DNA of 61,520 nt, counting the filler. It is 6 parts of 6 records of this genome, joined end to end, with 100 filler letters (N's around TTAATTAATTAA, not from the genome) between each part and the next. Parts side by side here need not be neighbours in the genome. Positions count along the whole stretch, not along the records: positions 1 to 19,935 come from DRR723986_11080; 5 more parts are not named here. One strand, written 5' to 3'. The notes beneath the pieces are model-generated. The model saw only the letters and a list, made by a program, of their open reading frames with translations. It did no database searches and was not told the origin of the DNA. How positions within the stretch are numbered: the stretch's first letter is position 1; every line of letters starts with the position of its first letter. Shown piece after piece: positions 1 through 18,624 of the stretch. A program made the position numbers and the translations under genes.

Positions 1-150
1 GTACATGGTGATTTCGAAACCGAAACGCATATCTACGAATTGTGGGGTGGTCCAGCTCATGTCTATTTCTCCAATGTTGTGATGACAAACAGCAGGTGGT
101 CCTGCCATGAAATAAGTGTACTGAAAGCCGCTCAGGAATTTTGCCCGACT

Positions 151-807
151 TCACTGGGTGATTGAAGGGCTGGTCAGCCCCCACCCGATCGCAAGCTTGG
201 TGAGTTCAATGTCATTGCTCACCTGCAGCTTCTTTTTGATTTGATAGTGAATGTTGTGAATGGTTTTTGCACTTAAAAAAAGTAGCTCGCCAATTTGCTC
301 GGCTGACTGACCGGCCACGAGCAAACACAACACCTCGAACTCGCGGCTGCTCAGCTCATCAAGCCCTCCCCGATTGTCGCGCAATCGCGAGAGCGCCATC
401 AACCGGGTCAAATCAGCACTCATGAAAGTGCGTCCCGACAGGACCTCACCAATGGCGCGCAAAAGCACTTCCGGTCGGCTACTTTTGGTGACATATCCCT
501 TGGCACCGGCTTCCATACATGCACGCGCAAGTTCGATTGAATTGTGCATGGTGAACATTAAAAACTTGACCTCCGGCCAACGCCCCAACACCCGCTGAAC
601 CAGATTCAAACCCACCGGCTCGGGCATGCTGATGTCGCAAATCACCAGCGCGGGCAAATCTTTCTGGCAAGCGGCATAGGCTTCCTGCGCGCTCTCAGCC
701 TCACGCACCTGCTTGAAACCACCCTGTGTTTCCAACAAATGCCGATATCCGGCGCGCACCACAGCATGGTCATCCACCAGCAAAATATTCAGGTCAGCGT
801 TGTTCAT
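151..807 (-). CDS. NarL/LuxR-family DNA-binding response regulator
   Basis: Receiver motifs LLVDDH, ICDISMP, GYVTKS; C-terminal LuxR HTH LSSREFEVL...LFLSAKTIHN; ATGA overlap with the upstream kinase. Confidence 0.93.
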   Translation of the reverse strand: MNNADLNILLVDDHAVVRAGYRHLLETQGGFKQVREAESAQEAYAACQKDLPALVICDISMPEPVGLNLVQRVLGRWPEVKFLMFTMHNSIELARACMEAGAKGYVTKSSRPEVLLRAIGEVLSGRTFMSADLTRLMALSRLRDNRGGLDELSSREFEVLCLLVAGQSAEQIGELLFLSAKTIHNIHYQIKKKLQVSNDIELTKLAIGWGLTSPSITQ

Positions 808-2147
808 GCGGCACCTTTTTCTTGAAAACTCGCAGACACCACAAATTTGTTTTCCTGAAGCTGGGCTTTGAATACACCACCATGAACCCGTACCCTTTCA
901 GCCAATAAATTCAAGCCCATCCCACCAGATGGCACCTGTGTCCCCGCTGGCTGCGGCAAGTCATTCTCAACACGCAATTCAAGCACTCCGGCCTGCAGTG
1001 CCAGGCCAACATTCACAGGCTCGCCCGGGGCTGCATGCCGCCGCACATTGGCCAAACACTCCTCGACAGTTCTGTAAACGCACAATGCGCGGTCCTGGTC
1101 CAGACGATTAAGGGCAGCCGCGTCAAGATTCAGGTTCACTGTCCATCCACTGCCCGAATTGATTTCCCATCGGGTGCACAGGTCCTGAATGGCCATGCCA
1201 AGATCAGCCCCCTCCAGGACAGGCGGGCACTTGTTCACCAGCACCGCCCTCATGCGCTCGAATGCCCCCTCGATTTGCAGTTCGATTTCTTCGAGTTTGT
1301 CCTGAACCTCAGCATCTCCCCCCTTCAGTTGAGCGCGCAGTTGGGCACAATTCACTGCAATCAGGCTCAGGGACTGCCCCAAATCCGCATGCACCAAATG
1401 GGCCAACTCCCGCCGCTCATCTTCTTGCACGTTGAGCAGCTTCATCATCAGCTTTCGGCGGGTTTGAGTCAGGCTCCACAGACGATCGTTCAGTCGGTTC
1501 ACGCCCTGCGCAATGCGGCCAAACTCTTTGGGCTGCACATCGGGAAGTTGTGCAGGTGGAGGACTGTCCTCGGAAATGGCAATCGAGTCGATTTTTTCTA
1601 CCAAGGTTGTCGCTGGCCGCAAGGCGCGACCAATAACCACATAGGTTAAGGCGGCAAGGCTGGCCACGATCAGGGTACTTAACAACAACAAGTCTCGCAG
1701 CGTGTTCCAGAATTTGACCAACACCAGTTGGGGGTCTGCGGTGATGAACAGCTCGCCAAACGGTTGGCCCCACAAACCAACCGGTCGGGGCTCCGATTCA
1801 ATCTGTACGCCGAGTACTCGCATCAACTGGGCTTCAAGCGGGTGGCGTACCAGGTTGTCACAACCCTCTTGTCGCACCTGCCCGTTCCAGCCCTCGTAAC
1901 GTATGCAATAAGGCGCCAGCAACAAACCATACTGACTGCCCACCAACACAGGCGAGCCCTCGATTTCGGGATTTATTTGACGCTTGTACATGGAGTACTC
2001 CACCATCTCGTGCAAGCGAGTAGCGTCGCTGGCCAGGGCATCGTCAACCTCATTGGCTGTTCGCAACACCACGTAGGCAGAAATCAACACCCAGCACAAC
2101 AGGCCCAGGGTGATCATTCGCACCAGCAAATAGCGTTTCAGGTTCAT
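804..2147 (-). CDS. Membrane sensor histidine kinase (HisKA_3/NarX-UhpB type, HAMP)
   Basis: Two TM segments, HAMP-like region, QEDERRELAHLVHADLGQ H-box, EECLANVRRHA N-box, GMGL G-box. Confidence 0.9.
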   Translation of the reverse strand: MNLKRYLLVRMITLGLLCWVLISAYVVLRTANEVDDALASDATRLHEMVEYSMYKRQINPEIEGSPVLVGSQYGLLLAPYCIRYEGWNGQVRQEGCDNLVRHPLEAQLMRVLGVQIESEPRPVGLWGQPFGELFITADPQLVLVKFWNTLRDLLLLSTLIVASLAALTYVVIGRALRPATTLVEKIDSIAISEDSPPPAQLPDVQPKEFGRIAQGVNRLNDRLWSLTQTRRKLMMKLLNVQEDERRELAHLVHADLGQSLSLIAVNCAQLRAQLKGGDAEVQDKLEEIELQIEGAFERMRAVLVNKCPPVLEGADLGMAIQDLCTRWEINSGSGWTVNLNLDAAALNRLDQDRALCVYRTVEECLANVRRHAAPGEPVNVGLALQAGVLELRVENDLPQPAGTQVPSGGMGLNLLAERVRVHGGVFKAQLQENKFVVSASFQEKGAA

Positions 2148-2156
2148 TCAAACAGT

Positions 2157-2831
2157 TTAATCGGCGTTGGGCTGCAAGTGGGCCAGTGCAGCCTCCCCGT
2201 GCAGGCGGGCCGCCAGCTTTCTTGCAACCGAATAATTGCTCACTGCCTCGCCGCGGTTCTGAACACCCAGTCGCCCAAAGGCCTCCTTGATGTGTGCATT
2301 CACCGTGTCGGGACTCATGCCCAATATCTTTGCAATTTCCTTGCCTGTTCTACCCAGGGACACCTGTTCCATCACCTGCGCCTGTTTGATGGTCAAAGGC
2401 TTTGGACTGCCGGGCATCTGAATCAGGCTTTGAAACTCGTTCCGTTGAGAAATTGAATTCAGGTTGACGGAATCGCGTTTCAGAAAACTTTGGACCTGCA
2501 CCATCAATTCCTTGTAATGCTGACTTTTGGACAACAGCAAGGCACCCGAGTTGGCCACCTGCCGTTCTATTTTGGAATCGCCCAAGGCAGTAAAGAAAAT
2601 ACGCAGTGACCTGGAAAAACGCTCAGACACCAATTCAATGACTTCAGCCGGCTTGCTGTTGGGCAAGACCAGATCAGAAACCACCAAATCCACGTCAGCA
2701 GGCTCAATTTCCTGTAGCTGTTCAACAGAATCAACCACCCTTGTATTCAAGCCCGGTACAACAGCAGCAATAATTTCCTCGACGACCATGGCCGAAGTCG
2801 GATGGTCTTCCAGTATCAATAAGTTCTTCAA
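2157..2831 (-). CDS. LuxR-family response regulator
   Basis: ILEDH and VSDLVLP receiver motifs; LTIKQAQVMEQVSLGRTGKEIAKILGMSPDTV HTH; TTG start. Confidence 0.85.
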   Translation of the reverse strand: MKNLLILEDHPTSAMVVEEIIAAVVPGLNTRVVDSVEQLQEIEPADVDLVVSDLVLPNSKPAEVIELVSERFSRSLRIFFTALGDSKIERQVANSGALLLSKSQHYKELMVQVQSFLKRDSVNLNSISQRNEFQSLIQMPGSPKPLTIKQAQVMEQVSLGRTGKEIAKILGMSPDTVNAHIKEAFGRLGVQNRGEAVSNYSVARKLAARLHGEAALAHLQPNAD

Positions 2832-3031
2832 ACCCTTGTCCCCAAAGTGTGGTTGTAGCGTGGCGGCTTTTGATTATTTTTTTGTGAATTATTCGTGCGA
2901 TTATCAATTGAAATGTTTAGTTATGTAAAGAATGCAAACCGGCTTACAAACCTGTCAGCACTTTTCAAAGCGCCGCGTTTCAAGTGGGTGGGCGCAATTC
3001 TCGAGGCGGCCTAATTGACAGGGGAAGTAAA

Positions 3032-3328
3032 ATGTCACACACAGACGATGAGAAAGTAAAAGCAAGACGGGCAGCGTTGGCCAAGGTAGGGCTGGCTGTA
3101 GGGGCTTTGTATGCCGCGCCTGCCATGGTGGGTTTGGCCACTGCGCACGCAGGCAGTCGCTCCAGGCCCAGCCGAAAATCCCGGCCATCCCGATATGACC
3201 GTTACCACACTCAATATGGGCGGGGCTACCGTTCCTCCCGGCCATCGCGCCCAAGCCGATATTCGAGATACTCCCGATACTCGCGGTATTCGCGGGTGAG
3301 CCGCCCCTGGTTCTATATCCGCTTCTAA
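3032..3328 (+). CDS. 98-aa Tat-like/YxxP-leader peptide with Ser-Arg repeat core (putative RiPP precursor)
   Basis: AGGGGAAG RBS before ATG 3032; RR + hydrophobic stretch containing YAAP + AHA site; core with 13 SR dipeptides encoded by varied synonymous codons; 3 bp gap to the next gene. Confidence 0.8.
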   Translation: MSHTDDEKVKARRAALAKVGLAVGALYAAPAMVGLATAHAGSRSRPSRKSRPSRYDRYHTQYGRGYRSSRPSRPSRYSRYSRYSRYSRVSRPWFYIRF

Positions 3329-3331
3329 GCG

Positions 3332-4597
3332 GTGAATGCTGTGACCAAACAAAGCCATGCCTGCCTTCTGATCAGGTTCAAAGGCGTGGCAGGCTACGTG
3401 ATCCTGCCTGACGAGCCGGCCTTGCTCGATGGCATCGCACAGCTTGCGCCCAGCTGGAAATACACTTCCGCAGCCATTGAAGACGATGGCAGCCTGCAAC
3501 GCTGCATCACCAGGGTAGCCAAAAATCAAAACAATCCCTCTACATTTGATGTCGAATCCGTTTACGTCGAAGAGCCGCTCATTGGTTTACCCACAGCCAG
3601 TGCACTGTGTGCCGTGATGGCCGATGTACTTGAGGCACATATTGAGGAAAGCCAAAACCCGATCGCATTGCATGCGGGCGCGGTCGCCATTGGCAACCGG
3701 CTTATCGCAATTACCGGACCGAGACGGGCGGGTAAAAGCACGCTGATTGCAAGACTTTGCGCGGAGCCAGACTTGCAAATTTTCTGCGACGATGTATTGC
3801 CGATCAGCCCACTTGGAGAAGGGGTGGCCTTGGGCGTGGCACCACGTTTGCGCCTCCCCCTGCCGGCAAAGGCAAGCCAACACTTCAAACAATTTGCACG
3901 ACAACACCTGGGGCCACACGACAACCGCTACGGCTACCTGTGCACTACAAACCTGGCTGGTAACGGAACGCGCCGGCCGCTTGGTGCAATCGTGGTGCTC
4001 GACCGGCAAATCGACACCGCGGCCTGCCTGCACACCATGAACGAGGACGATGCCTTGTTCTATGCGCTTGAACAGAACATGGGGCAGTTCGATACGCCTG
4101 CCGAAGCCTTGGCAACAACACAGGCAGTTTTGGGCAAAGTCACTTGTGTTCGACTGGTGTACAGCAACCTGGAAGAAGCCGTACAGCTGCTTCGGAAGGC
4201 GTTTGGTGGTGACGAAGCCATTCATCCTGACGTTCTGGTGAAGCCCGCCCAAGGCTGGACACCGCCAACACCACACGCCCACAGGCCTGTGAACCCTCAG
4301 CAAGTGTTCAAGCGAGCGCCTACCGCAGCCTTGCGCCGTATCGGACAATCTGCCTTTTTGTGGCAAGCCGGAGAACACACCATTTGGCGATTGAACAGGG
4401 TGGGACAAGCTGTGTGGGCGCTGCTCGAAATACCTGGCAATGCCAGGGAGCTGGTCGAAGCGTTGGCCGAGGTATTTGTGCAAGTGCCTCAAGAACAACT
4501 CCAGCATGATGTTGCTGCTTTACTGGGTATTTTGAATGCAGAGGGGTTTGTAGTGGAACTTTCGGACCAATTAGCACTCTTAAACGAAGAGTGCTAA
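3332..4597 (+). CDS. HPr-kinase-like P-loop kinase fused to C-terminal PqqD/RRE domain
   Basis: LHAGAV, Walker A GPRRAGKST, IFCDD acidic motif; C-terminal ~85 aa (IWRLNRVGQAVWALL...LVEALAEVF...LQHDVAALLGILNAEGFV) has the PqqD pattern. Confidence 0.85.
   Translation: MNAVTKQSHACLLIRFKGVAGYVILPDEPALLDGIAQLAPSWKYTSAAIEDDGSLQRCITRVAKNQNNPSTFDVESVYVEEPLIGLPTASALCAVMADVLEAHIEESQNPIALHAGAVAIGNRLIAITGPRRAGKSTLIARLCAEPDLQIFCDDVLPISPLGEGVALGVAPRLRLPLPAKASQHFKQFARQHLGPHDNRYGYLCTTNLAGNGTRRPLGAIVVLDRQIDTAACLHTMNEDDALFYALEQNMGQFDTPAEALATTQAVLGKVTCVRLVYSNLEEAVQLLRKAFGGDEAIHPDVLVKPAQGWTPPTPHAHRPVNPQQVFKRAPTAALRRIGQSAFLWQAGEHTIWRLNRVGQAVWALLEIPGNARELVEALAEVFVQVPQEQLQHDVAALLGILNAEGFVVELSDQLALLNEEC
4556..4582 (+). 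promoter_or_regulatory. Putative sigma-E promoter of rpoH
   Basis: GAACTT-N16-TCTTA about 60 bp upstream of the rpoH ATG. Confidence 0.5.
4571..4597. promoter_or_regulatory. CIRCE element (HrcA operator) upstream of rpoH
   Basis: Exact TTAGCACTC-N9-GAGTGCTAA. Confidence 0.95.
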
Positions 4598-4641
4598 AAT
4601 TAACTGGAAATTGGTTCATTTATTCGGAGAACACCGCAATC

Positions 4642-5568
4642 ATGACCACTGCATTGACCCTTGCTAACACCCGCGCCGCTGGCAGCAGCCTCGCTGTGCG
4701 CGACCCATGGGCACTGGTGGCCCGTGGCCCGCTTGGCAACCTAGATGCCTACATTTCAGCCACACACCAAATTCCCATGTTGTCGCCTGAAGAAGAAGTT
4801 GAGCTTGGCGAACGCCTGCAACGCGACAACGATCTCGAAGCAGCCCGCCGCCTGGTGCTCAGCCACCTGCGACTGGTGGTTGCCGTTGCACGGCAGTATT
4901 TGGGCTATGGCTTGCCCCACGCCGATCTCATTCAGGAAGGCAATATTGGCCTGATGAAAGCCGTGAAGCGATTCGACCCCACGCGTGGCGTGCGGCTGGT
5001 CAGCTTTGCGCTGCATTGGATCAAGGCTGAAATCCACGAGTACATCATTCGCAACTGGCGCATGGTGAAAATGATCACCACCAAGGCGCACCGCAAGCTG
5101 TTTTTCAACTTGAACAGCTTCAAGAAGTACGGTCAGACCCTGACGCCAGATCAAATCAACGAAGTGGCCAGTGAATTGAATGTGCGTCCCGAGGATGTGT
5201 ACGACATGGAGCGCCGCATGGCGGGCCATGAATTCAGCCTGGACCCGGTAGTCGATGTAGACAGCGAAGAAAACAGCTACAACCCCGTACGCTATTTGGC
5301 CGCTGAAGGCGCCGAGCCCACCGAGGTGCTTGAAGGTGTCAACATGGAGCGCCTGCACAGCGAAGGCCTGGACATGGCCTTGGCCAGCCTGGACGAGCGC
5401 AGCCAGCGCATTATTTCCAGCCGCTGGTTGGCCGGTGACAACGCCAAAACCCTGCACGACCTGGCTGCAGAGCTGGGTGTGTCGGCTGAGCGGGTTCGTC
5501 AAATTGAAACCCAAGCCATGAAAAAGATGAAAACCGCTTTGCTGAAATACGAACACGGTGAAGCTTAA
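4642..5568 (+). CDS. rpoH: RNA polymerase sigma-32 factor
   Basis: ADLIQEGNIGLMKAVKRFDP, RNWRMVK, RpoH-box-like RKLFFNL, region 4 GVSAERVRQIE; GGAG RBS upstream of ATG 4642. Confidence 0.96.
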   Translation: MTTALTLANTRAAGSSLAVRDPWALVARGPLGNLDAYISATHQIPMLSPEEEVELGERLQRDNDLEAARRLVLSHLRLVVAVARQYLGYGLPHADLIQEGNIGLMKAVKRFDPTRGVRLVSFALHWIKAEIHEYIIRNWRMVKMITTKAHRKLFFNLNSFKKYGQTLTPDQINEVASELNVRPEDVYDMERRMAGHEFSLDPVVDVDSEENSYNPVRYLAAEGAEPTEVLEGVNMERLHSEGLDMALASLDERSQRIISSRWLAGDNAKTLHDLAAELGVSAERVRQIETQAMKKMKTALLKYEHGEA

Positions 5569-5643
5569 AATCCAGGCTGTAATCTTTTTGGGTGAAAACT
5601 AACCTACACTAAGGGCTTGGCAACAAGCCCTTTTTTTACGACC

Positions 5644-6321
5644 ATGATTGAAGTACATCACCTGGAACACTCACGCTCGCAGCGCATTATCTGGCTGCTT
5701 GAAGAACTTGGCCTGCCATACAAAGTAAAGCGCTACGCCCGCGACGCCAAAACCTACCTGGCCCCACCGGAGTTGCTGAAAATTCACCCTTTGGGAAAAT
5801 CGCCCGTGATTACGGATGGCGACATTACAGTGGCTGAGAGTGGTGCCATTGTGGAATACCTGATCGACAAGGCTGGCGGTAAGTTTCGCCCAGCCGCCGG
5901 TACCCAGGCTCACCGTGACTACACCTACTGGATGCACTTTGCCGAGGGCACAGCCATGCCCCCACTGGTCATGACTTTGGTGTTCAATAAAATTGAAAAT
6001 GCCCCTGTACCCGCTTTGCTCAAGCCAATTGTGCTGCCAATTGCACGCGGTATTTCCAAGCAGGTGAAAAGCAGTTTCATCAACCCCAACCTTGAAAAGC
6101 AGTTCGCTTACATTGAAAGCGTGCTGGCCAAGAATGAGTGGTTTTGCGGCAGCGAAATGACCGGGGCTGATTTCATGATGAGCTTTCCGCTTGAAGCAGC
6201 CATGAGCCGGGCAGAAAGCGTCAGCAGCATGCCTAAAATTGCAGCTTACGTCAAACGCATTCACGCCATGCCCAGCTTCAAAAAAGCGCTGGAAGTGGGC
6301 GGCCCGTACAATTACGCTTAA
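5644..6321 (+). CDS. Glutathione S-transferase (GTT1-like)
   Basis: HHLEHSRSQRIIWLLEEL, IHPLGKSPVI, AESGAIVEYL. Confidence 0.93.
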   Translation: MIEVHHLEHSRSQRIIWLLEELGLPYKVKRYARDAKTYLAPPELLKIHPLGKSPVITDGDITVAESGAIVEYLIDKAGGKFRPAAGTQAHRDYTYWMHFAEGTAMPPLVMTLVFNKIENAPVPALLKPIVLPIARGISKQVKSSFINPNLEKQFAYIESVLAKNEWFCGSEMTGADFMMSFPLEAAMSRAESVSSMPKIAAYVKRIHAMPSFKKALEVGGPYNYA

Positions 6322-6336
6322 ATTCGCTGAACACGC

Positions 6337-7059
6337 ATGAACGCAGCAAGTACGTCTATAGAACAACAGGCAAAAATCACCCAGGTCAACGGCAATGTGC
6401 AGTTGATTCGGGATGGCTTTTTCCTGCCTGCACAGGCGGGCATGGTTCTATTGCCGGGTGACCGCGTTCTCAGCGATGCGGGCACAAAGGCAGTCATTGA
6501 GTTCACTGGCGTGAAGGATGCGCTGATCATCGAGAATGGTGCAGCGGCCACCTTCAACCTTGAAGTGGTTGATATGGACCAGGTGCCCCAGTGGATCGCC
6601 ACAGACCTGTATGGCGAAGGCGTGTACTTTGACGGTCAGCAAACCACCGGCAAAACTGCAAGTACCACTGAAGACGCCCCGGACCTGTTTGGCCTGTTTG
6701 GTACCCAGAGTAGCAGCGGTGAATCAACCGGTTTTCCGGTGCTGGAAAGCGTGGTGTTTTTGGGTGCTACCGCAGCCATATACAGCGACAACGAGGACAA
6801 CGCCAGCACCACTGAAACCACTGGCACGAGTGAATCAGGCAATAACGATTCAGGCACAGGTGGTGGCAACAACAATCCGCCACCAGCACCCCCACCAGAA
6901 ACCGAAGAGCCGGCACCGGGACCACTGGATGCCGTTCTAGGCCCAGTGACCGATGCATTGGACGGTTTACTCTCCACCCTGGGCGCGCCATCCCCCGTGG
7001 GTAGCCTGCCCATACCTTTGCAAGCCAGCAGCAACACGGCCAACCTGCCCACTGAATAA
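6337..7059 (+). CDS. Hypothetical protein with N-terminal FecR/retention-module-like beta domain and low-complexity tail
   Basis: AKITQVNGNVQLIR...AGMVLLPGDRVLS; hydrophobic patch, then T/G/N/P-rich tail. Confidence 0.65.
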   Translation: MNAASTSIEQQAKITQVNGNVQLIRDGFFLPAQAGMVLLPGDRVLSDAGTKAVIEFTGVKDALIIENGAAATFNLEVVDMDQVPQWIATDLYGEGVYFDGQQTTGKTASTTEDAPDLFGLFGTQSSSGESTGFPVLESVVFLGATAAIYSDNEDNASTTETTGTSESGNNDSGTGGGNNNPPPAPPPETEEPAPGPLDAVLGPVTDALDGLLSTLGAPSPVGSLPIPLQASSNTANLPTE

Positions 7060-7181
7060 TCGCGAGTATCTTGGGTCTGCACAACGGAGTTTGAGTCGTG
7101 CATAAAACTATGCAAGGCGCGAATACGCTTATTCACTGAATAAGATGTGGGTTGAACGCGGCGGCAAAGGATCTATTTTTT

Positions 7182-7817
7182 ATGAGCGACAACACACACT
7201 TCGGAATCGATTTTTCCGAGGCGAAAACAATTGTCAGCGCCAACAAACCCAAAGCATTCCCGAGCAAGTCCAAGTTTGATTTAACCAACCTTTACGCCTT
7301 TACAGCACCAGATGGCGTACCACGTGCCAGTGGGCCTTGTGCGCTGGGTACCATTCTTCATCACCATGACATTGGCTGGAGCCACTTGCCCAAAGACAGA
7401 CACGGGCATCCGTTGAACGATCCCTATATTCAGGAAATCATGCGCTGGGCCGAGTGCCCCGACTTGCTGATTGGGTGCATGGGCACCACGCCAGCCGCTT
7501 TGCTGAGGGGCTTAAGAAAAGCAGAACTGCTTGCCGATTGGTATGCAGGCAACACGCCACAAGCCACACTGAACCTTATTGGCAACGAACTTTTTGAAGG
7601 CAGACCTGTGATTGCATTAATCAATCACGGCCCGGAAGGTGAACCGCTGTTGGTGGAATGGGAGGTGGTGTTCAACATTGATTGCGACACGGTGCACTCG
7701 AAACAGGCAAACACGGCGCAGCAGGACAAAAAACGCACCTTGGCCGAATTCATGGCACAAATGGCCATGAACTTGCCGCAACTTAGTTACAGTGTAATCA
7801 CAGCCAGAAAAGAGTAA
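7182..7817 (+). CDS. Hypothetical protein, possibly degenerate C39-like fold
   Basis: Long ORF filling the gap between genes; SGPCALGTIL and GRPVIALI segments. Confidence 0.6.
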   Translation: MSDNTHFGIDFSEAKTIVSANKPKAFPSKSKFDLTNLYAFTAPDGVPRASGPCALGTILHHHDIGWSHLPKDRHGHPLNDPYIQEIMRWAECPDLLIGCMGTTPAALLRGLRKAELLADWYAGNTPQATLNLIGNELFEGRPVIALINHGPEGEPLLVEWEVVFNIDCDTVHSKQANTAQQDKKRTLAEFMAQMAMNLPQLSYSVITARKE

Positions 7818-8420
7818 TTACTTGCCGTCGAGAATTTGCTCGACATCGCTGACCACGGGTGCAGAGTCTGCGTTGTGGCGAACCAGCAAGCGGGCACGAC
7901 CCTGTTGATCGAACACATAGCTTGCAGAGGTATGGTCCATCAGGTAGTTGTCGGGCGAGCTGCCTTCCACCTTGCCGGCGTACACCCGCAAGCCAGCCAA
8001 CAGGGGCTTCAATTCTTCGGAAGATTCCGCGGTAAGTGCATCAAAGGTAGGGTTGAACTGGGGCACATACTTTTTCAGCAACTCGGGCGTGTCGCGCTCT
8101 GGGTCAACTGACACAAACAGCACCTGCAAGTTGTCGCCCTTCTCGCCCAGCTTGGTTTTCACCTCGTTCCACTGTTGCATGGTGATGGGGCAGACATCCG
8201 GGCAATGGGTGTAGCCGAAGAACATGGCCACCACCTTTCCTTGGTAGCTTTCCATGGTGCGCTCTGTGCCCGACAAGTCTTTCAACTTGAAATTGGCCAC
8301 CAGTGAAGATCCGGTGATGTCCGTGTTGGTAAAACTGGCCGGGCCTGCGTTACACGCGGCCAGCAAGGCCACTGCGCCCACCAAAAACCATGTTCTTACT
8401 TGCTTCAATACACTGCGCAT
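7818..8420 (-). CDS. SCO1/SenC copper chaperone lipoprotein
   Basis: LLAAC lipobox, FGYTHCPDVCP, VSVDPERDT, YLMDHT; start re-called at ATG 8420. Confidence 0.93.
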   Translation of the reverse strand: MRSVLKQVRTWFLVGAVALLAACNAGPASFTNTDITGSSLVANFKLKDLSGTERTMESYQGKVVAMFFGYTHCPDVCPITMQQWNEVKTKLGEKGDNLQVLFVSVDPERDTPELLKKYVPQFNPTFDALTAESSEELKPLLAGLRVYAGKVEGSSPDNYLMDHTSASYVFDQQGRARLLVRHNADSAPVVSDVEQILDGK

Positions 8421-8425
8421 ACTGC

Positions 8426-9328
8426 TTACACCGTGACATAGTGATCGACCAATAAGGCCGCGAACAAGAACGCCAGATAGGCGATGGAATACGTGAATGC
8501 CTTTTTCGCCAGGGCATCGCTGTAGTTTTTCCAGATTTTGTAACCATAGCCGATGAAAATGGCATTCAATACCACGGCACTGACCAGGTAAATGAGACCG
8601 CTCATTTTCATGGCATAGGGAATCAGCGTGGTGGCCGCCAGCATGATGGTGTACAAAAACACGTGGAACTGCGTGAATGCAGCGCCATGGGTAACAGGCA
8701 ACATCGGCAGACCAGCGCGTGCATACTCTTGCGTGCGGTACAAAGCGAGCGCCCAAAAATGCGGCGGGGTCCATACAAAAATAATCAGGAACAACACCAA
8801 AGCCTCAGCCGATACACCGTTGGTGACCGCAGCCCAACCCAGTACGGGTGGCATGGCACCCGACGCACCGCCAATCACAATATTTTGTGGCGTATTGGGC
8901 TTTAACAGAAGGGTATAAATAATGGCGTAACCCACGAAGGTGGCCAGTGTCAGCCACATGGTCAAGGGATTCACAAACACATAAAGAATCCACACACCAA
9001 CGCCACCCACCATGCTGGAAAAAACCAGTGTCTGGACTGAATTCAGCTCGCCTCGGGGCAGGGGACGTGCGCGCGTACGCGCCATTTTCGCGTCAATCTG
9101 CTGTTCAACCAGGCAATTGAATGCGGCAGCCGCACCCGCCACTAGCCAGATACCCAAGGTGCCCGCGATCAATACCTGGGCATCGGGCAAATCGGGTGTT
9201 GCCAAAAACATGCCAATAACTGCGCAAAACACGATCAAGGCCACCACGCGTGGCTTGGTCAATGTCCAGTACTGTTTGGCCACGTGAGAAAAACTACCCA
9301 CGGCTTTTGTTTTTTCAACGGATGGCAT
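8426..9328 (-). CDS. cyoE: Protoheme IX farnesyltransferase (heme O synthase)
   Basis: [42 protein letters not shown]. Confidence 0.96.
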
Positions 9329-9336
9329 GTTGAGCC

Positions 9337-10344
9337 TTATGAAATTCGATGGCGATTGCCCGCAACCCGATAGTTTACCAAGATCAGGGTGACCAGCAAC
9401 AGCGCTGCGCCCCCATTGTGCGCCACGGCCAACCACAAAGGCAATTGAAACACCACGTTACCAATGCCCATGGCAATTTGCAAAGCCAGCACGGCCACCA
9501 GTTTAATCGCCAATGGCTTGGTGCCCGGGTTGCGCCAAAGTGCAAAAGCGAGGAAGCCCAAAATACCAGTAACCACCAAGGCCCCGATACGGTGAATAAA
9601 GTGAATCGCGGTGAGTGAGGCCACATTCAGAACTTCGCCTTCAGGGGTTTCACCCAAGTGCCGAATGATGTGAAATGCATCCTTGAATTCCATGTGCGGC
9701 CAGAAACTGCCCTGACAAGTCGGGAAGTCGGTACACACCACCGCGGCATAGTTAGTGCTGACCCAACCGCCCAAGATAATTTGCACAGCCACAGCCACAA
9801 AGCCCACACGCGCCAGCAGGCGCAATCCGCTCAAATCACTGGGCGGCGCCACCGTGCGGGCAGGGCTGGTTTGGCGTAGCCATAGCCAGGTCAACATGCC
9901 AAGAATAGTCATGCCGCCGATGAGGTGACCAGTCACAATCGCGGGCTTGAGCAGCATGGTGACCGTCCAGGCACCAAATGCACCTTGCAAACACACCGCA
10001 AAAAACAGCCAGGTGGCTAGCGCAGGAGATTGCTTCAATTCAGCACGCTTTTTCCAGGCCATCACCATAATGCCAATGATCAACAAACCCAGAAACGTGG
10101 CCACATAGCGGTGCACCATTTCCTTCCATGCTTTTGGCATGGACACCGGGCCATGAGTGCCGCCCTGAATTTCAACGGCCTGCGCAATTTCCTCAGCGGC
10201 GTGCGTGGGTGTCAACTTGCCATAGCAACCAGGCCAATCCGGGCAACCCAAACCGGCGTCGGTCAAGCGCACAAAAGCGCCCAACATGATCAACAGGAAG
10301 GTAAGTACGGTGGTGAATGCGACCAAACGCTTGTAACTGCTCAT
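9337..10344 (-). CDS. ctaA: Heme A synthase (COX15/CtaA)
   Basis: [40 protein letters not shown]. Confidence 0.94.
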
Positions 10345-10359
10345 GATGCTGCTCTCGAA

Positions 10360-10992
10360 TTAACCAATATTGGATGCCCACAACAGGCGGCTGATGTCTT
10401 TGCGAAACTTGTCAAACTGCAGGGTGTTATTTGGCGGAAAGCGCATCATGACATGCCCGAGTGGATCCGCCACAAACACATGGTCCCGAACCGTTCCAAT
10501 GTCGGCACTGCCTTTGTTGCCCACAATGCCCTGCTCCAGCGGCAACCAGCTTTTCAGTTGGTCTTCGCTTGCCCGTACGAAATGAACGTCGGGAAACTGA
10601 CGCAGCAGCAGTGTTTCAAGGGGACCATCATCGGTGACAAACACAACACGTTCAATTCGACCTTGTTCTTTGCCTTTCGAAGCACGGGCCTGACGCTGGA
10701 AGTACATGGTGTTCTGACACACCTCGTCGCAATCACTGTTGATCACCTGAATCAGCACCCACTTGTCAGCCACCTGCTGCATGGTGAAATCATCGCCATT
10801 GATGTTTTTAAATACCTCGGTGGACACATCCACTTGCGGATCCAGAATGGTGCCGTAGTTGTTAGTGCCTTCGGGCTTGTCAAAGAAGTACAAATAGAAG
10901 GCCGCCACAATGGGCAAGGCGCAAGTGAGGAACACCAACAATATGGTCATTCGGCCCTTGTTCAGCTTCGCGGGTGCGCTGGCTGCATTCAT
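10360..10992 (-). CDS. Cox-cluster membrane-anchored thioredoxin-like protein
   Basis: N-terminal TM, NYGTIL, CDEVC, DPLGHVMMRFP; position between surf1 and ctaA. Confidence 0.8.
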   Translation of the reverse strand: MNAASAPAKLNKGRMTILLVFLTCALPIVAAFYLYFFDKPEGTNNYGTILDPQVDVSTEVFKNINGDDFTMQQVADKWVLIQVINSDCDEVCQNTMYFQRQARASKGKEQGRIERVVFVTDDGPLETLLLRQFPDVHFVRASEDQLKSWLPLEQGIVGNKGSADIGTVRDHVFVADPLGHVMMRFPPNNTLQFDKFRKDISRLLWASNIG

Positions 10993-11804
10993 GTTTTATT
11001 TCCCTTGTAAAACTCTCGATACACAAAAAACAGAGTCAGCAAAACCAACACCGCCGACATGGTAAACCATTGAAAGGCGTATCCCCTGTGCTTGGCCACT
11101 TGTTCTTGCAACGGCACCGCGAGGTGATAAAAACCGTCCACTTTACCGGCCGGTGCTTGCTGCCCGGCTGTTTGCGCAACTGGCTGCTGGGTTACTACAA
11201 AATTGCTGACTGGCTCGCCAGCGTGCTTTTCAAATTCAATCACACTGAAATTCGACCACACCTCATAACCATTGCTTTGTGCCTTCGTGATGCGGTCGGC
11301 CTCGCCCAAGGCAATGCCCCGCAATTCAGCCGACTGGGCAAAACGCGGCAGAATTGTTCCTTTTAAATCAAACAAATCCCCAGCCTGCGTGGCCTCGGTG
11401 GGCATCTCCGGTGCAAGCCGTGGCTGGGCCGGGTTTCTCAACAACAGCCCCCGATCGACAGGTATCAGAAAACTGGCACCCTCTGGCCGAAAACCCTGCA
11501 CCACCTGAACGGCGGGTCGCCCATTCACTTGACGATTGTCTATGTATATCAGGGCTTTGGCTTCGAACCTACCCCTCAAATCAATTTTTCGGTAGGACAT
11601 ATTGTCCAAGTCCAACCGTGGACTGCCCGGAGACACAGCCTCGGCCGCCAATGCGCGGGCCTGTGCATCAAACAAGGTTTGTTTTTCGTGAGCCCGCCCC
11701 GTTTGCCATTGCCCCAAACTGAAGGTGAGCCACACCAGCCCGGCACCCAGCAGGACGCTGAAAGCCAGCTTTGTCTTTCCCGGTGTTTTCACTGCGTTAA
11801 CCAT
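10989..11804 (-). CDS. SURF1 family oxidase assembly protein
   Basis: LGQWQTGRAHEK, VDRG, HRGYAFQWF. Confidence 0.92.
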   Translation of the reverse strand: MVNAVKTPGKTKLAFSVLLGAGLVWLTFSLGQWQTGRAHEKQTLFDAQARALAAEAVSPGSPRLDLDNMSYRKIDLRGRFEAKALIYIDNRQVNGRPAVQVVQGFRPEGASFLIPVDRGLLLRNPAQPRLAPEMPTEATQAGDLFDLKGTILPRFAQSAELRGIALGEADRITKAQSNGYEVWSNFSVIEFEKHAGEPVSNFVVTQQPVAQTAGQQAPAGKVDGFYHLAVPLQEQVAKHRGYAFQWFTMSAVLVLLTLFFVYREFYKGNKT

Positions 11805-11857
11805 GACATACTTCCAATTGTGTGCTGTACACGGTTAGTTTTTGAAAGGTGTTCACC

Positions 11858-12058
11858 ATGAAGTTCATCATTGGCCTGGCGTTCCTGGGCATCCTGCTAA
11901 GCCTGGGTTCGGCTTTTTTCTTTCTCATGAAGGACAAAAGCAAATCCAGTCGAACCGTCAACGCGTTGACCATGCGCATCGGTTTGTCCATCGCGCTGTT
12001 CCTGCTGATTCTGTTTGCCTGGTACATGGGCTGGATAGAGTCAACTGGCATTCGATAA
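11858..12058 (+). CDS. Twin transmembrane helix small protein (DUF2909-like)
   Basis: ILLSLGSAFFFLMKD...ALTMRIGLSIALF; antisense position within the cox cluster. Confidence 0.85.
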   Translation: MKFIIGLAFLGILLSLGSAFFFLMKDKSKSSRTVNALTMRIGLSIALFLLILFAWYMGWIESTGIR

Positions 12059-12080
12059 GCTCAATGTAAGCTCGATATCC

Positions 12081-12116
12081 AAAAAAAAGCCACCGGAATT
12101 TTCCAGTGGCTTTTTT
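12081..12116. terminator. Bidirectional intrinsic terminator
   Basis: A8-GCCACCGGAA-TT-TTCCAGTGGC-T6 between convergent genes. Confidence 0.85.
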
Positions 12117-12153
12117 AATTGTGTGTTTTACAGCCTGCCGGGAAATACCCGAA

Positions 12154-13008
12154 TTACAGCCAGTAAACCACCACGTACAAGCCCAACCACACGACGTCCA
12201 CGAAGTGCCAATACCAAGCTGCAGCTTCAAATGCGAAGTGGTTTTGTGGCGTGAAGTGACCCTTGATGCAGCGAATCATGATGAAGAACAGCATGATGGC
12301 GCCGATAGTCACGTGGAAACCGTGGAAACCGGTCAGCATGAAGAAGGTTGAACCGAAAATACCTGATGTTAACTTCAGGTTCAAATCGCGGTAAGCGTGA
12401 ATGTATTCATAGGCCTGGAAACCCATGAAGATTGCGCCCAACAACACGGTCAACGCCAAGCCCCAGATCAACTGTGAACGCTTGTTGGCGATCAGCGCGT
12501 GGTGCGCCCAGGTCAGGGTAAGGCCCGATGTCAGCAACAACGCGGTGTTGATGGTGGGAATTGGCCATGGGCCCATGGTCTGGAATGCGTCAATGGTACC
12601 AGCGGGGCCAGTGTTGGGCCAGTTGGCTGTGAAGTCGGGCCACAGGAAAGCCTTGTTGTCGATGTCACCAAGCCAGGGCATGGCGATTTGACGAGCATAA
12701 AACAGCGCACCGAAAAATGCGGCAAAGAACATGACTTCGGAGAAAATGAACCAGCCCATGGACCAGCGGAAGGAGACATCCACCCTGGCACTGTACTGAC
12801 CACTTTCGGATTCGCCCACCACATGCTTGAACCAGCCTGTGAGCACATAAATAAGAATTGCCATGCTGAGTGCGAACAGGTAAGGGCCTGATGCAGCGCC
12901 GTTTACCCACTGGGACATGCCCAGTACAAAAAAGAACATGGCCACTGCGCCAAGCACAGGCCACTGGGACAAGCCGGGCACAAAGTAATATGGTGCATTC
13001 GCACGCAT
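12154..13008 (-). CDS. coxC: Cytochrome c oxidase subunit III
   Basis: FIFSEVMFFAAFF, TGFHGFHV, AAWYWHFVDVVW. Confidence 0.97.
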   Translation of the reverse strand: MRANAPYYFVPGLSQWPVLGAVAMFFFVLGMSQWVNGAASGPYLFALSMAILIYVLTGWFKHVVGESESGQYSARVDVSFRWSMGWFIFSEVMFFAAFFGALFYARQIAMPWLGDIDNKAFLWPDFTANWPNTGPAGTIDAFQTMGPWPIPTINTALLLTSGLTLTWAHHALIANKRSQLIWGLALTVLLGAIFMGFQAYEYIHAYRDLNLKLTSGIFGSTFFMLTGFHGFHVTIGAIMLFFIMIRCIKGHFTPQNHFAFEAAAWYWHFVDVVWLGLYVVVYWL

Positions 13009-13071
13009 GGTGGTTTCTCCTATTTCTTTAATTTAGATGCTTCAATACTGCAACAGCGAGTTTCGTACGGC

Positions 13072-13302
13072 TTAAGCGGAACTCACCACAAAATTTACCA
13101 ATACCAGCAGCCCGATCACAAAACCAGCGGCTGCCAACAGACCCACAATAATGACGTGGACCGGATTTAACTTCTGCATGTCCTCCGAATGGTTTTTACC
13201 CTTTCGGACCCCGAAAAATGACCACAACACCGCTGACAGCGTTTGCAAAAAGGTGGCGGTGCTCGCTTTGCGTGACGCGGCTTCTTTGATGTCTTTGGAC
13301 AC
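13072..13302 (-). CDS. DUF2970-like small membrane protein
   Basis: AVLWSFFGVRKGK...DMQKLNPVHVIIVG. Confidence 0.85.
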   Translation of the reverse strand: MSKDIKEAASRKASTATFLQTLSAVLWSFFGVRKGKNHSEDMQKLNPVHVIIVGLLAAAGFVIGLLVLVNFVVSSA

Positions 13303-13868
13303 TATTCAGCCGCCATGGCTGTAGCGCCGGCCACTTCAAAAAACGTATAACTCAATGTGATGGTGTGTACATCTTGTGGCAACTTGGGGTTGATCACAAA
13401 CACCACCGGAAACTCTTTTGTTTCACCTGCCTTGAATGGCTGCTGTTTAAAGCAGAAACATTCCAGCTTGGTGAAATGCTCAGCTGCCTTGCTGGGCAAA
13501 TAACTGGGTATGGCCTGACCTGCAGTGTCGTTCTGCAGGTTGTTGTACACCACATAATTCATGGTCACCAGCTCACCTGGATGAACCATCATTCGATTCG
13601 TCTCCGGCTTGAACTGAAATTTGCCTCGCTCATTGGCGTCAAAGATCACTTCAATGCTTCGGCTTTTGTCCACTTGGGTATTCTTCACGATTTCTTCCGC
13701 ATTCTTGGTTTGCGGTGTGAGCACGTTAATCCCGGTGATTTCACAAATGGCCTTGTAAATGGGTACCAATGCGTAGCCGAAGGCAAACATGGCCACAACA
13801 ATCACGACAAGGCGCACCACCATCTGCTTGTGCAAACCGCTTGTTTTTTGACTATTTCCGTTGGCCAT
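13302..13868 (-). CDS. ctaG: Cytochrome c oxidase assembly protein Cox11/CtaG
   Basis: MFAFGYALVPIYKAICEITG, KLECFCF, TLSYTFF. Confidence 0.95.
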   Translation of the reverse strand: MANGNSQKTSGLHKQMVVRLVVIVVAMFAFGYALVPIYKAICEITGINVLTPQTKNAEEIVKNTQVDKSRSIEVIFDANERGKFQFKPETNRMMVHPGELVTMNYVVYNNLQNDTAGQAIPSYLPSKAAEHFTKLECFCFKQQPFKAGETKEFPVVFVINPKLPQDVHTITLSYTFFEVAGATAMAAE

Positions 13869-13901
13869 GCTGCTTTACCTCTACTGCAAATTCGTTAAAA
13901 C

Positions 13902-14039
13902 CTAGTTCATCAAATTCAAGATGCTGGGTTCCATCACCTTGCGAATCAGAATGCCGATAAAAAACACGGCAGCCACCGACAGCAAAATCAAACCAGTGCG
14001 CTTGTTCTGTTTCGCTTTCTCTTTTTCTTCAGGGGTCAC
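13902..14039 (-). CDS. Cytochrome oxidase small assembly protein (45 aa)
   Basis: Not in the ORF track; AGGAAG RBS, GTG start, MTPEEKEKAKQNKRTGLILLSVAAVFFIGILIRKVMEPSILNLMN*, single TM, between coxA and ctaG. Confidence 0.8.
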   Translation of the reverse strand: MTPEEKEKAKQNKRTGLILLSVAAVFFIGILIRKVMEPSILNLMN

Positions 14040-14164
14040 GCTTACTTCCTTGCTGAACCGATTCGTTGTGTAAAGGAGCCTTGAGTAACAGACAAGAGCA
14101 AAGCCGCTTTACACAACGGGGGGTTGGCAACAACCAAACCCCCATTGTTAAACCCTTGGGTGAA

Positions 14165-15769
14165 TTACTTCACTGTGGGTGGATCTTCAAAGGTGTGGAA
14201 CGGCGCTGGTGATGGAACTGTCCACTCCAGACCTTCAGCACCTTCCCATGGCTTGGCAGGCGCTGCCTCGCCCTTCTGGAACATCCATGCACGCAGTACG
14301 CACCACAGGAAGATCAACTGCGACAAACCGAACCAGAACGCACCCACAGTGGCAATGGCATGGAAGTCAGTGAACTGTGTGGCGTAATCGGCATAACGAC
14401 GTGGCATACCGGCCAAGCCCAGGAAGTGCATTGGGAAGAAAGTGACGTTGAAGCTGATCAAGGATGACCAGAAGTGCCACTTGCCCAATGTTTCGCTGTA
14501 CATGCGGCCAGACCACTTGGGCAGCCAGTAGTAAGTACCTGCAAACAAGGCAAACAGAGAACCCGCGACCAGCACGTAGTGGAAGTGAGCCACCACGTAG
14601 TAAGTGTCCTGCAGCTGAATGTCAACAGGGGCCACGGCCAGAATCAGGCCGGTAAAACCACCCATGGTGAACACGAAAATGAAACCGACAGCGAACAGCA
14701 TGGGGGTTTCGAATGTCATGGAGCCACGCCACATGGTGGCCAGCCAGTTAAATACCTTCACGCCGGTGGGCACCGCGATCAACATGGTTGCGTACATGAA
14801 GAACAACTGGCCAGTGACCGGCATGCCGGTTGTGAACATGTGGTGCGCCCAAACGATGAAGGACAGAATCGCGATGGACGCAGTGGCGTACACCATGGAG
14901 CTGTAACCAAACAATGTTTTGCGAGCGAACGTGGGTACGATGTGGCTGATGATGCCGAAGGCCGGCAAGATCATGATGTACACCTCGGGGTGACCGAAGA
15001 ACCAGAAAATGTGCTGGTACATCACAGGGTCACCGCCACCGGCCGCATTGAAGAATGATGTGCCGAAATGGCGATCAGTCAACACCATGGTGATGGCGCC
15101 AGCCAACACGGGCATTACTGCAATCAACAGGTAAGCGGTAATCAGCCAGGTCCAGGCAAACATCGGCATTTTCATCAAGGTCATGCCAGGCGCGCGCATG
15201 TTCAGGATGGTGGTGATGATGTTGATGGAGCCCATGATCGAGGAGGCACCCAGGATGTGCATCGCGAAAATCGCCGCATCCATACCTGGGCCCATTTGCA
15301 CGGACAAGGGTGCATACAGGGTCCAGCCAGCAGCAGTAGCGCCGCCGGGCATAAAGAAGGATGCTGTCAGGATGATCGCTGCAGGAACCATCAGCCAGAA
15401 GCTGAAGTTGTTCATGCGGGCAAAGGCCATGTCAGAACAGCCGATTTGCAGCGGAATCATCCAGTTGGCAAAACCCACAAATGCGGGCATCACCGCACCA
15501 AACACCATGATCAAACCGTGCATGGTGGTTAGCTGGTTGAAGAACTCGGGCTGAACCAGTTGCAGGCCAGGTGCAAACAATTCTGCACGCAGCATCAGCG
15601 CCAACACGCCGCCTTCCAGCAGCATGATGAACGAGAAAATCAGGTACATGGTACCGATGTCTTTGTGGTTGGTTGCGTACAACCAACGGCGCCAACCATG
15701 CGGATGGTCGTGCGCGTGGTCATGGTCGTGACCATGTCCGTGGGTTAAATCTGCCGCGGTAGTGCTCAT
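14165..15769 (-). CDS. ctaD: Cytochrome c oxidase subunit I (aa3, A1 type)
   Basis: [31 protein letters not shown]. Confidence 0.98.
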
Positions 15770-15788
15770 GTAAATCTCCTAAGCAATA

Positions 15789-16964: not shown

Positions 16965-17013
16965 GGCGATCCTCAATCTCAAAAAAAATATCAAACTGGT
17001 GGAAGCCGCATGC

Positions 17014-17532
17014 CTATACCGCACATGCTGCCCTGGCCAACGCTGCTTTCAATTCGCGGTGCAGCGCTGACTTGTCTTTTTCAGCAATAAATTTGCCTAT
17101 TTTTACTTGTTGGCCTTTGTGACTGAACAACAGAGGCGCTTTGTATTTTCCGTTGTAGCTTAGTTTGGCCCATTGGGGTGACCATTCAAGCTGGGTCAGT
17201 TTGGTGCCATCGGCCATGACCAGAATAAGCTGGTGTGGCTGAAGTTCGATCATTTCATAATCAGCCGCATGCCTCGCGTAGATTACAAATGCCGTACCTA
17301 CCAACAACAACTCGATTCCAGCGAACGGCAACACAATCCAGAAACCTGCCAGCAAAAAGCCCGTTGCAACTACCAAAGTAATTGCACACAAACTGAGGTA
17401 CCACTGCAAAAGCTGCTTGGGACTAAGCGAACAGTTGCGTCGAAAAACCCATCTACTGCTTTGCGGCGCTGGGATTTGCCCGTCGCCGCCCGCCGCATTA
17501 GCTGAACTTGAAATTTCTGGAATCATGCCCAT
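17014..17532 (-). CDS. DUF2244-like membrane protein
   Basis: RNCSLSPKQL, GFWIVLPFAGIE, YARHAADYE; GAGG RBS. Confidence 0.85.
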   Translation of the reverse strand: MGMIPEISSSANAAGGDGQIPAPQSSRWVFRRNCSLSPKQLLQWYLSLCAITLVVATGFLLAGFWIVLPFAGIELLLVGTAFVIYARHAADYEMIELQPHQLILVMADGTKLTQLEWSPQWAKLSYNGKYKAPLLFSHKGQQVKIGKFIAEKDKSALHRELKAALARAACAV

Positions 17533-18623: not shown

Positions 18624-18624
18624 T

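Follow-up and report, generated by a model that had tools for sequence, protein, structure and literature searches.

A two-gene cassette pairing a Tat-signal-like, serine-rich peptide with a kinase-RRE fusion enzyme: an apparently undescribed variant of leader-guided peptide modification

The window analysed here is a stretch of 61,520 nucleotides, filler included, in which six parts of six records of one genome are joined end to end with 100 filler letters between each part and the next; positions 1 to 19,935 come from DRR723986_11080. This first part contains an accessory cassette of two adjacent genes. Gene 1 encodes a small peptide with a conserved leader and a Ser-rich core, and gene 2 encodes an enzyme in which a P-loop kinase domain of the HPr kinase type is fused to a recognition element (RRE) of the kind that binds the leaders of ribosomally synthesised peptides that are modified after translation (RiPPs). 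Pairing of the two genes is a property of the enzyme family and not a matter of chance. The system appears to be a variant of leader- and RRE-guided peptide modification, one apparently not described so far. The reading that we favour, with somewhat better than even confidence, is that an RRE-guided kinase recognises a secreted-type peptide by its leader and modifies the Ser-rich core.

The enzyme, its peptide and their pairing

Architecture, conservation and catalytic motifs can be read directly from gene 2 and its homologues (Table 1). A preliminary description of this DNA had proposed a two-gene unit with a 3-bp gap, a precursor consisting of a 40-aa leader and a 58-aa core with 13 Ser-Arg (SR) dipeptides, and an enzyme with LHAG, GPRRAGKST and DD motifs followed by a C-terminal PqqD-like domain. 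All of these elements were recovered when the open reading frames (ORFs) were read anew. The C-terminal region passes the cut-off of the Pfam family PqqD (PF05402, residues 348-407, E 8e-12, 45.8 bits against a gathering cut-off of 23.4). In an AlphaFold2 model built from 24 homologues (pLDDT 90.2, pTM 0.86) it adopts the three-stranded sheet and three-helix winged helix of an RRE. The best structural match of residues 326-410 is the lasso peptide B1 protein TbiB1 (5v1u_A; Z 12.9, root-mean-square deviation 1.8 Å over 84 of 84 residues, VIA-align), other matches being TfuB1 (6jx3_B, Z 12.4) and PqqD (5sxy, Z 10.8). TbiB1 is also found when the enzyme profile is searched against PDB sequences (E 2.7e-6). 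The extreme tail of gene 2 is of low confidence and not conserved in the family, because its last 14 codons come from flanking DNA; pLDDT falls below 50 at residues 414-421.

The assignment of the preceding domain as an HPr-kinase-like kinase, made in the same description, holds at the level of fold (Z about 12-15) and of catalytic residues. Residues 108-300 match chains of HPr kinase/phosphorylase (HPrK/P; 1jb1_A, Z 12.2; 1ko7_B, Z 12.1; 3tqf_B, Z 11.9). Residues 6-340 match phosphoenolpyruvate carboxykinase (PEPCK; 1ii2_B) at Z 14.8, with 277 aa aligned of a 514-aa chain at 10% identity, and the top Foldseek match is again PEPCK (E 2e-6). PEPCK and the HPrK catalytic domain share one fold, and the likeness of gene 2 to PEPCK is one of fold only, with no PEPCK Pfam match at E<=1. 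A profile of the kinase domain aligns LH.GA, GKS and CDDV residue for residue with the solved Coxiella HPrK (3tqf, E 0.0051). H114, G134-K135-S136-T137 and D153-D154 are invariant in an alignment of 24 diverse homologues, and the spacing from H to K, at 21 residues, matches that from H148 to K169 in the lasso kinase BsfK (numbering of PMC10368454). The first two Gly residues of the H...G..G.GKS...DD motif are not conserved here, the window sequence being PRRAGKS.

The leader of gene 1 carries two sets of signals. Across 34 aligned leaders, with the consensus xSRRxLLAxLGLxAGAAYVAPxLxxLxxAxA, R12, R13, Y27 and P30 are invariant, and L16, G20, A29, A38 and A40 are conserved in at least 90%. The lasso leader motif Y-x-x-P-x-(L/M) is present, with L or M usual at +5 and G often found four residues later, which is in keeping with an RRE that has B1 proteins as its closest structural relatives. 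The leader also has the anatomy of a twin-arginine translocation (Tat) signal: an invariant RR, a Gly/Ala-rich hydrophobic stretch, and AxA about 27 residues after the RR. With RR and YxAP invariant and AxA nearly so, the leader therefore resembles an RRE docking site no less than a signal peptide of the Tat type. The term leader in the preliminary description thus stands as far as the lasso YxxPxL motif is concerned, and the twin-arginine hallmarks go beyond that account.

Profile searches point in the same direction at low scores. Below-cut-off matches to the signal part of TIGR02811 ('formate dehydrogenase region TAT target') were obtained for 22 of 33 precursors, and four of the 33 match TIGR01409 (TAT_signal_seq) at 13.3-15.2 bits, where the cut-off is 16.7. 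For the window peptide there is no TIGR01409 match, and only the N-terminus of the Iro model is matched (E 8e-4); the ESM Atlas, which has no entry for the enzyme, gives weak leads only (0.76-0.78) from the peptide to Tat-exported families. TatC was found in the two nearest genomes, evidence for the presence of the machinery and no more. No Pfam or NCBIfam family reaches its cut-off for the gene 1 peptide, and none of the 33 precursors matches a Pfam family at a meaningful level.

In contrast to the leaders, the cores are hypervariable and of low complexity. They are built from repeats such as SRP, YSRPS, GGSGG, SGRGGN and KPSRPD, and His-rich and acidic S/T/D versions also occur. Taken together, 82 cores (5735 aa) consist of R (0.20), S (0.18), G (0.18), P (0.09) and Y (0.05) as main constituents, with three Cys in total; the median Ser fraction is 0.18 and the minimum 0.05. 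At the DNA level gene 1 is barely repetitive, with one weak 9-bp array of three copies at 3256-3282 as the only repeat found by TRF, so the composition of the core is maintained in the protein sequence and did not arise by recent slippage. The stop-to-stop frame of gene 1 contains 14 SR dipeptides, one of them upstream of the ATG. Many clades share a short conserved amphipathic tail at the C-terminus of the core. The C-terminal residue is aromatic (F, W or Y) in 32 of 74 cores, and a role of this residue like that in outer-membrane proteins, or in activating DegS, was rejected, there being no family rule.

Two clade-specific patterns were seen among the cores. In loci of Halomonas (L029, L036, L042, L078), His, Arg and Asp dominate and Ser-His repeats lie near the end, which suggests metal binding. 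In gammaproteobacterial loci, including L014, L016 and L020, peptide stop and enzyme start share an overlap of 3-25 nt, and peptides of this type end in clade-specific tails (...PSRW, ...LPRW, ...GPPGRW); overlap and shared tails suggest translational coupling and a conserved C-terminal element.

Homologous loci were collected with a degenerate DNA pattern for the signature DDVL...G..PRLRLPxP. At least 120 stretches were recovered, all 120 of which match the family hidden Markov model, and counts for the family are lower bounds. Pairing was assessed in the 80 stretches that came with 5-kb flanks, using a leader profile built from the upstream ORFs and run against all six-frame ORFs of the loci. 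A small leader ORF on the same strand ends between -60 and +150 nt of the enzyme start in 74 of the 80, which agrees with the earlier expectation that homologous enzymes would be preceded by Ser-rich small ORFs with RR/YxxP leaders. One further locus (L063) has its leader ORF farther upstream, three stop at a contig end with no upstream DNA, and two (L050 and L074) have no leader ORF. Once L063 is counted, the pairing thus holds in 75 of the 77 loci with enough upstream DNA. L074 looks like a decayed locus, since its enzyme is spread over two ORFs and AT-rich DNA precedes it; L050 has unrelated DNA upstream. Peptide stop and enzyme start often overlap or lie 0-3 nt apart, and the paired loci span Alpha-, Beta- and Gammaproteobacteria as well as Desulfovibrio. 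Within the genus of the window, the enzyme is carried by four of 25 genomes, and the peptide is kept beside it in all four although enzyme identity ranges from 55 to 99%.

When the leader profile was run against nine whole genomes, each contained one to three leader-bearing ORFs, all but one of them at the enzyme locus. With so few leader ORFs per genome, the leader would therefore serve a few dedicated substrates, as in RiPP pathways, rather than an extensive regulon of sorted proteins; the idea of a sorting signal of general use, with many targets, was rejected on the same count. The exception is a third small leader ORF on contig 1 of G043 (the genome of L040), near base 422,531 and far from the enzyme locus, which is an orphan substrate gene.

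Some loci contain additional partners. In 24 alphaproteobacterial loci, a gene for an S8 subtilase (PF00082) lies directly upstream on the same strand. The N-terminus of this protein bears the RR...YxAP...AxA leader, followed by a Gly/Ser/Arg-rich linker that resembles the local small peptide in composition, and the subtilase is presumed to be a second type of substrate of the enzyme. The suggestion of a minimal kinase-only system accordingly fits the genus of the window and does not extend to these 24 loci, where the leader-bearing subtilase is part of the unit. In 21 loci of the S8 type, a divergent sigma gene of the extracytoplasmic function (ECF) type is present together with an adjacent gene without a Pfam match. 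Three other loci (L039, L051, L067) carry the enzyme twice: some 0.5 kb downstream of the first copy lies a diverged second one, in front of which is a leader peptide whose core has 13-14 aa and one or two Ser. A 544-aa homologue (P0196) was considered as a peptide-enzyme fusion and rejected, since its N-terminal extension looks like a repeat translated off frame.

The family is large and sparsely annotated. Against 1.84 billion representatives, the enzyme profile finds 562 representatives of 50%-identity clusters at E<=1e-30 and 2264 at E<=1e-10. Of the source names attached to 149 word-index matches of the enzyme, just two are informative, 'PqqD family protein' and 'PqqD family peptide modification chaperone'; the remaining matches are 'hypothetical protein' or unnamed, and the peptides are 'hypothetical protein' in public sources.

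Table 1. Coordinates of the cassette and related features (positions are those of the window unless a locus is named)
Feature	Position	Strand	Remarks
Accessory two-gene cassette	3029..4553	+	1525 bp; presence/absence indel in genus; flanks abut in G023
Shine-Dalgarno-like AGGGGAAG	3020..3027	+	Upstream of gene 1; read from sequence
Gene 1, precursor peptide, 98 aa	3032..3328	+	ATG 3032, TAA 3326-3328 (stop included)
Leader, residues 1-40, Tat-signal-like with lasso-type YxxPxL	3032..3151	+	Alignment of 34 leaders
Twin arginine R12-R13	3065..3070	+	Invariant, 34/34 aligned leaders
Y27-A-A-P30-A-M32, YxxPx(L/M) motif, presumed RRE docking site	3110..3127	+	Y and P invariant
A38-H-A40, AxA signal-peptidase-type site, leader end	3143..3151	+	A38, A40 at least 90% conserved; putative cleavage site
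Core, residues 41-98 (58 aa)	3152..3325	+	Low-complexity Ser/Arg/Pro/Tyr repeats; 13 SR dipeptides; ends ...SRPWFYIRF
Gene 2, kinase-RRE fusion enzyme, 421 aa	3332..4597	+	GTG 3332, 3 bp past gene 1 stop; stop 4595-4597
N-terminal alpha/beta domain, about residues 6-105	3347..3646	+	Superposes on PEPCK jointly with kinase domain
HPr-kinase/PEPCK-fold P-loop kinase domain, residues 108-300	3653..4231	+	Structure matches to HPrK/P chains
H114 of LHxGA (ALHAGA)	3671..3673	+	Invariant; aligns with His of Coxiella HPrK
Walker A/P-loop G129-PRRAGKS-T137	3716..3742	+	G134, K135, S136, T137 invariant
D153-D154 (FCDDV), catalytic Asp pair	3788..3793	+	Invariant; aligns with HPrK CDDV
Family signature P171-RLRLPLP-178	3842..3865	+	P171, R172, L173, R174, L175, P176, P178 invariant (24 sequences)
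C-terminal RRE (PqqD-like winged helix), residues 326-410	4307..4561	+	PF05402 and fold match
Gene 2, last 14 codons and stop	4554..4597	+	Read from flanking DNA also present in cassette-free genomes
Leader-bearing S8 subtilase, example locus	L008 5967-7340	-	1 of 24 alphaproteobacterial loci

Relation to known systems

On the evidence of sequence motifs and the model, the system would work like a lasso tailoring kinase with its B1 protein, placed outside a lasso cluster. As described in PMC10368454, YxxPxL is the lasso leader motif recognised by B1, and BsfK is an HPrK-like lasso kinase that acts on the linear precursor, phosphorylating a Ser inside the core; its activity requires H148, K169, S170, D186 and D187 and is strongly accelerated by the discrete RRE BsfB1. 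Other lasso kinases phosphorylate, or even polyphosphorylate, mostly a C-terminal Ser, and those of proteobacteria place several phosphates on one Ser, according to PMC8498205. Lasso precursor kinases with B1 (BsfK/BsfB1; PadeK, ThcoK, SyanK) thus likewise combine an HPr-kinase-like P-loop kinase, an H...GKS...DD motif and a YxxPxL leader, and they act on the linear leader-bearing precursor with phosphorylation enhanced by the RRE (PMC10368454, PMC8498205). The likeness is judged by fold, motif and these published descriptions.

The differences are equally marked. Kinase and RRE are here one polypeptide, and the B2 protease, C cyclase and ABC exporter of lasso clusters are missing. The leaders end in AxA rather than with Thr/Ile at -2, and have the invariant RR in addition. 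In place of a lasso core there is a long, Ser-rich, low-complexity repeat, mostly without a terminal Ser, and a full-size S8 protease is a presumed substrate as well. Neither the B2 transglutaminase-like peptidase nor the C Asn-synthetase-like cyclase occurs among the 12 window neighbours or the 15 most widespread neighbour clusters (82 loci), the lasso Thr (or Ile/Val) at -2 is absent, and positions 7-9 of the window core are free of acidic residues. As it lacks B2, C, the Thr at -2 and the ring features, the system is not a lasso cluster. A Pfam scan of the 12 neighbouring window ORFs found no lasso B2 or C, no radical SAM enzyme, no ABC exporter or transporter, and none of pqqA, pqqB, pqqC or pqqE, in keeping with the preliminary description, which had noted no lasso cyclase, protease, radical SAM enzyme or exporter nearby and had set the unit apart from lasso and PQQ (pyrroloquinoline quinone) clusters.

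Other families share single parts with gene 2. With HPrK/P it has in common the fold of the catalytic domain (Z 11.9-12.2) and the aligned His, GKS and DD; in contrast, it reaches the cut-off of no HPrK model, has no phosphotransferase system context, and has a different N-terminal domain and an added RRE. The best NCBIfam match of the kinase region is HprK-related kinase A (TIGR04352; residues 105-145, E 1.4e-5), at 24.4 bits against a cut-off of 200, so gene 2 is not a member. The TIGR04352 family occurs with a separate PqqD-like protein. With PqqD of the PQQ pathway the enzyme shares the Pfam domain, whereas the equivalog model TIGR03859 gives 20.8 bits against 46 and no pqq genes are nearby; several PqqD-type chaperones are also matched in NCBIfam, far below threshold.

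A similar logic, implemented by different enzyme families, is seen in bufferins and in Tat proofreading chaperones. Bufferins are RiPP precursors with signal peptides, modified in the cytoplasm by MNIO oxidases and then exported via the general secretion signal. Tat proofreading chaperones of the TorD/DmsD type are all-helical cytoplasmic proteins that bind Tat signal peptides before export. In the literature we found no report of an RRE that reads a signal peptide and no description of this peptide-kinase system; the main text of the RRE-Finder paper, its supplementary figures of novel clusters aside, contains no instance of kinase, HPr or phosphoryl. No curated family covering the system was found in Pfam or NCBIfam.

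Proposed mechanism and its alternatives

We infer leader binding, the chemistry, its multiplicity and the export route from the BsfK precedent, taken together with the fusion of kinase and RRE, the retention of the B1 motif and the absence of lasso-specific parts. Genes 1 and 2 would be co-transcribed, as contigs suggest. In the cytoplasm, the C-terminal RRE would bind the leader at YxAPx(L/M) in the way that lasso B1 proteins bind YxxPxL, as fold and motif imply, and docking would bring the disordered core into the cleft that the HPrK/PEPCK-fold domain provides. By homology with lasso precursor kinases, His114, Lys135, Ser136 and Asp153/154 are predicted to move phosphate from ATP to Ser hydroxyls, probably at many SR/SRP sites. 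Since the leader has the form of a Tat signal (RR, mildly hydrophobic stretch, AxA), the modified peptide would then undergo export, with Tat as the most plausible route, and lose its leader at AxA. What results would be a disordered extracytoplasmic phosphopeptide of high charge, and any role for it in binding polyions, metals or minerals, or in envelope signalling, is speculation. In alphaproteobacteria, the same enzyme may also modify the Gly/Ser/Arg-rich linker behind the identical leader of the co-encoded S8 subtilase.

The junction between the two genes is bridged by contigs from RNA libraries in four runs from four studies, three of which start at 2995-3026, just upstream of gene 1. These contigs are compatible with co-transcription from just upstream of gene 1; they are weak evidence for it, because the data are assembled contigs and RNA libraries can contain DNA. 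The three starts come from three different metatranscriptome studies and fall within one 30-bp stretch, a weak hint of a transcript 5′ end. Depth differences over 3155-3276 in run X14 are uninterpretable, the contigs there crossing the repeat region. A scan for sigma-70 promoters and terminators near gene 1 gave nothing above the shuffled expectation.

A more specific form of the proposal, which we hold tentatively and at clearly less than even confidence, is that the leader is dual-purpose: a Tat signal peptide that is also read by the RRE. The fused kinase would retain its substrate in the cytoplasm, phosphorylate the disordered, Ser-rich segment many times and only afterwards release it for Tat export.

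Several points weigh against the idea of an RRE-guided kinase acting on a secreted peptide. Phosphorylation, its sites and its multiplicity would all follow from remote homology. The preliminary description had proposed a search for HPrK_C and PqqD, and only the second was matched: no Pfam HPrK model, Hpr_kinase_C included, matches gene 2 at E<=1, and the TIGR04352 score given above lies far below its cut-off. No Tat model reaches its cut-off for any precursor (TIGR01409, TIGR02811), and Pfam TAT_signal has no match at E<=0.1. Some cores are Ser-poor, down to the minimum fraction, and others are His-rich or acidic, so that no single charge logic covers them all. A C-terminal Ser is found in two of 74 cores, whereas characterised lasso kinases mostly target a C-terminal Ser. 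The RNA support, too, consists of assembled contigs from libraries that possibly contain DNA.

These points leave some room for other readings of the same genes. An enzyme with this architecture and docking mode could act without a stable multi-phosphorylated product: it might add a single regulatory phosphate, build polyphosphate on one Ser, transfer another phosphoryl- or nucleotidyl-type group, or serve mainly as a chaperone that binds the signal peptide, holds the substrate back and so licenses export, much as Tat proofreading chaperones bind the signal peptides of their own substrates. This we regard as unlikely, if still a serious contender. The several phosphates placed on one Ser by proteobacterial lasso kinases (PMC8498205) speak for it; so does the position of the RRE site, which would lie within the signal peptide, so that binding and export likely compete; and the resemblance of the N-terminal and kinase domains, taken as a whole, to PEPCK makes other acceptor or donor chemistry conceivable. 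The invariance of His, GKS and DD in 24 diverse sequences, however, argues for catalysis and not for binding alone, and Ser abounds in nearly all cores, pointing to many acceptor sites. Less probable again is a classical cytoplasmic RiPP pathway, in which the leader would serve the RRE only, its Tat likeness would be coincidental, and a protease (S8 in alphaproteobacteria, a housekeeping enzyme here) would remove it, the modified peptide or its repeat units, once released, acting as an antimicrobial or a signal. An RRE closest to lasso B1, a YxxPxL leader, the one to three substrates per genome, the paralogous enzymes of L039, L051 and L067 with cores as short as those of typical RiPPs, and the S8 protease co-encoded in 24 loci are all as such a pathway would have them. 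Yet RRE binding requires neither the invariant RR nor the AxA that is nearly invariant at signal-peptide spacing, and the S8 protease bears the leader itself, which better suits a secretion signal on a secreted protease. Moreover, no exporter is encoded nearby, either in the window Pfam scan or among the widespread neighbour clusters, and hypervariable low-complexity cores (GGS, SRP, KPSRPD) are unlike a specific bioactive scaffold.

We give very little credence to the remaining view, that the small ORF is incidental and the enzyme acts elsewhere, for instance on a regulator. It draws on the position of the cassette between two-component genes (LuxR-type response regulators) and a sigma-70-family, rpoH-like gene. 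These flanks are nevertheless not part of the unit, which is a clean indel with different neighbours in different taxa, and in 74 of 80 loci the enzyme has beside it an ORF whose leader is conserved at the protein level.

If the proposal of RRE-guided phosphorylation holds, the family would form a compact RiPP-like class of one peptide and one enzyme, with at least 562 representatives of 50%-identity clusters at E<=1e-30 that publicly bear only the labels 'PqqD family protein' or 'hypothetical protein'. Lasso-type RRE and kinase parts would have been re-used outside lasso biosynthesis, an RRE would be able to read a motif embedded in a secretion signal, and bacteria would make exported, multiply phosphorylated, disordered peptides and protein linkers. 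It would also provide a natural minimal two-gene system for leader-directed peptide phosphorylation, possibly of use as an engineering tool. Should the leader prove to be dual-purpose, an RRE-guided modification would for the first time be seen linked with a general secretion signal, on small peptides and a folded S8 protease alike, and bacteria would have a dedicated route to secreted, densely phosphorylated, disordered polypeptides with a logic like that of eukaryotic secreted phosphoproteins.

Genomic setting of the cassette

The cassette is a clean 1525-bp indel within the genus. In one cassette-free genome (G023, L135) the left flank stops at window position 3028 and the right flank resumes at 4554, the two being directly joined. 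As part of the best explanation, we propose that the cassette is a self-contained, horizontally mobile two-gene module. The insertion site, between the gene for a LuxR-type response regulator and the rpoH-like gene, is variable within the genus, and three other genomes (G009, G022, G012) have 2-4.5 kb of different DNA there.

In the Pfam scan of the 12 neighbouring ORFs, the upstream neighbours are LuxR-type response regulators and a HisKA_3 kinase; downstream lie the rpoH-like sigma gene (sigma-70 family), a glutathione S-transferase gene and genes for cytochrome-oxidase assembly. The flanking genes are considered to lie outside the unit, because the cassette is a clean indel and the neighbours vary between taxa.

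Some minor features were noted on the downstream side. The stop of gene 2 falls within a 9-bp inverted repeat (4573-4581 and 4587-4595, with a loop at 4582-4586), which is situated upstream of the rpoH-like gene and occurs in cassette-free genomes too; a sigma-70-like promoter match at 4571-4600 overlaps this repeat. Farther along the window are two ORFs without a Pfam match, at 6337-7059 (240 aa) and 7152-7817 (221 aa), the first of which has a long C-terminal half that is rich in Ser, Thr, Gly and Pro and of low complexity.

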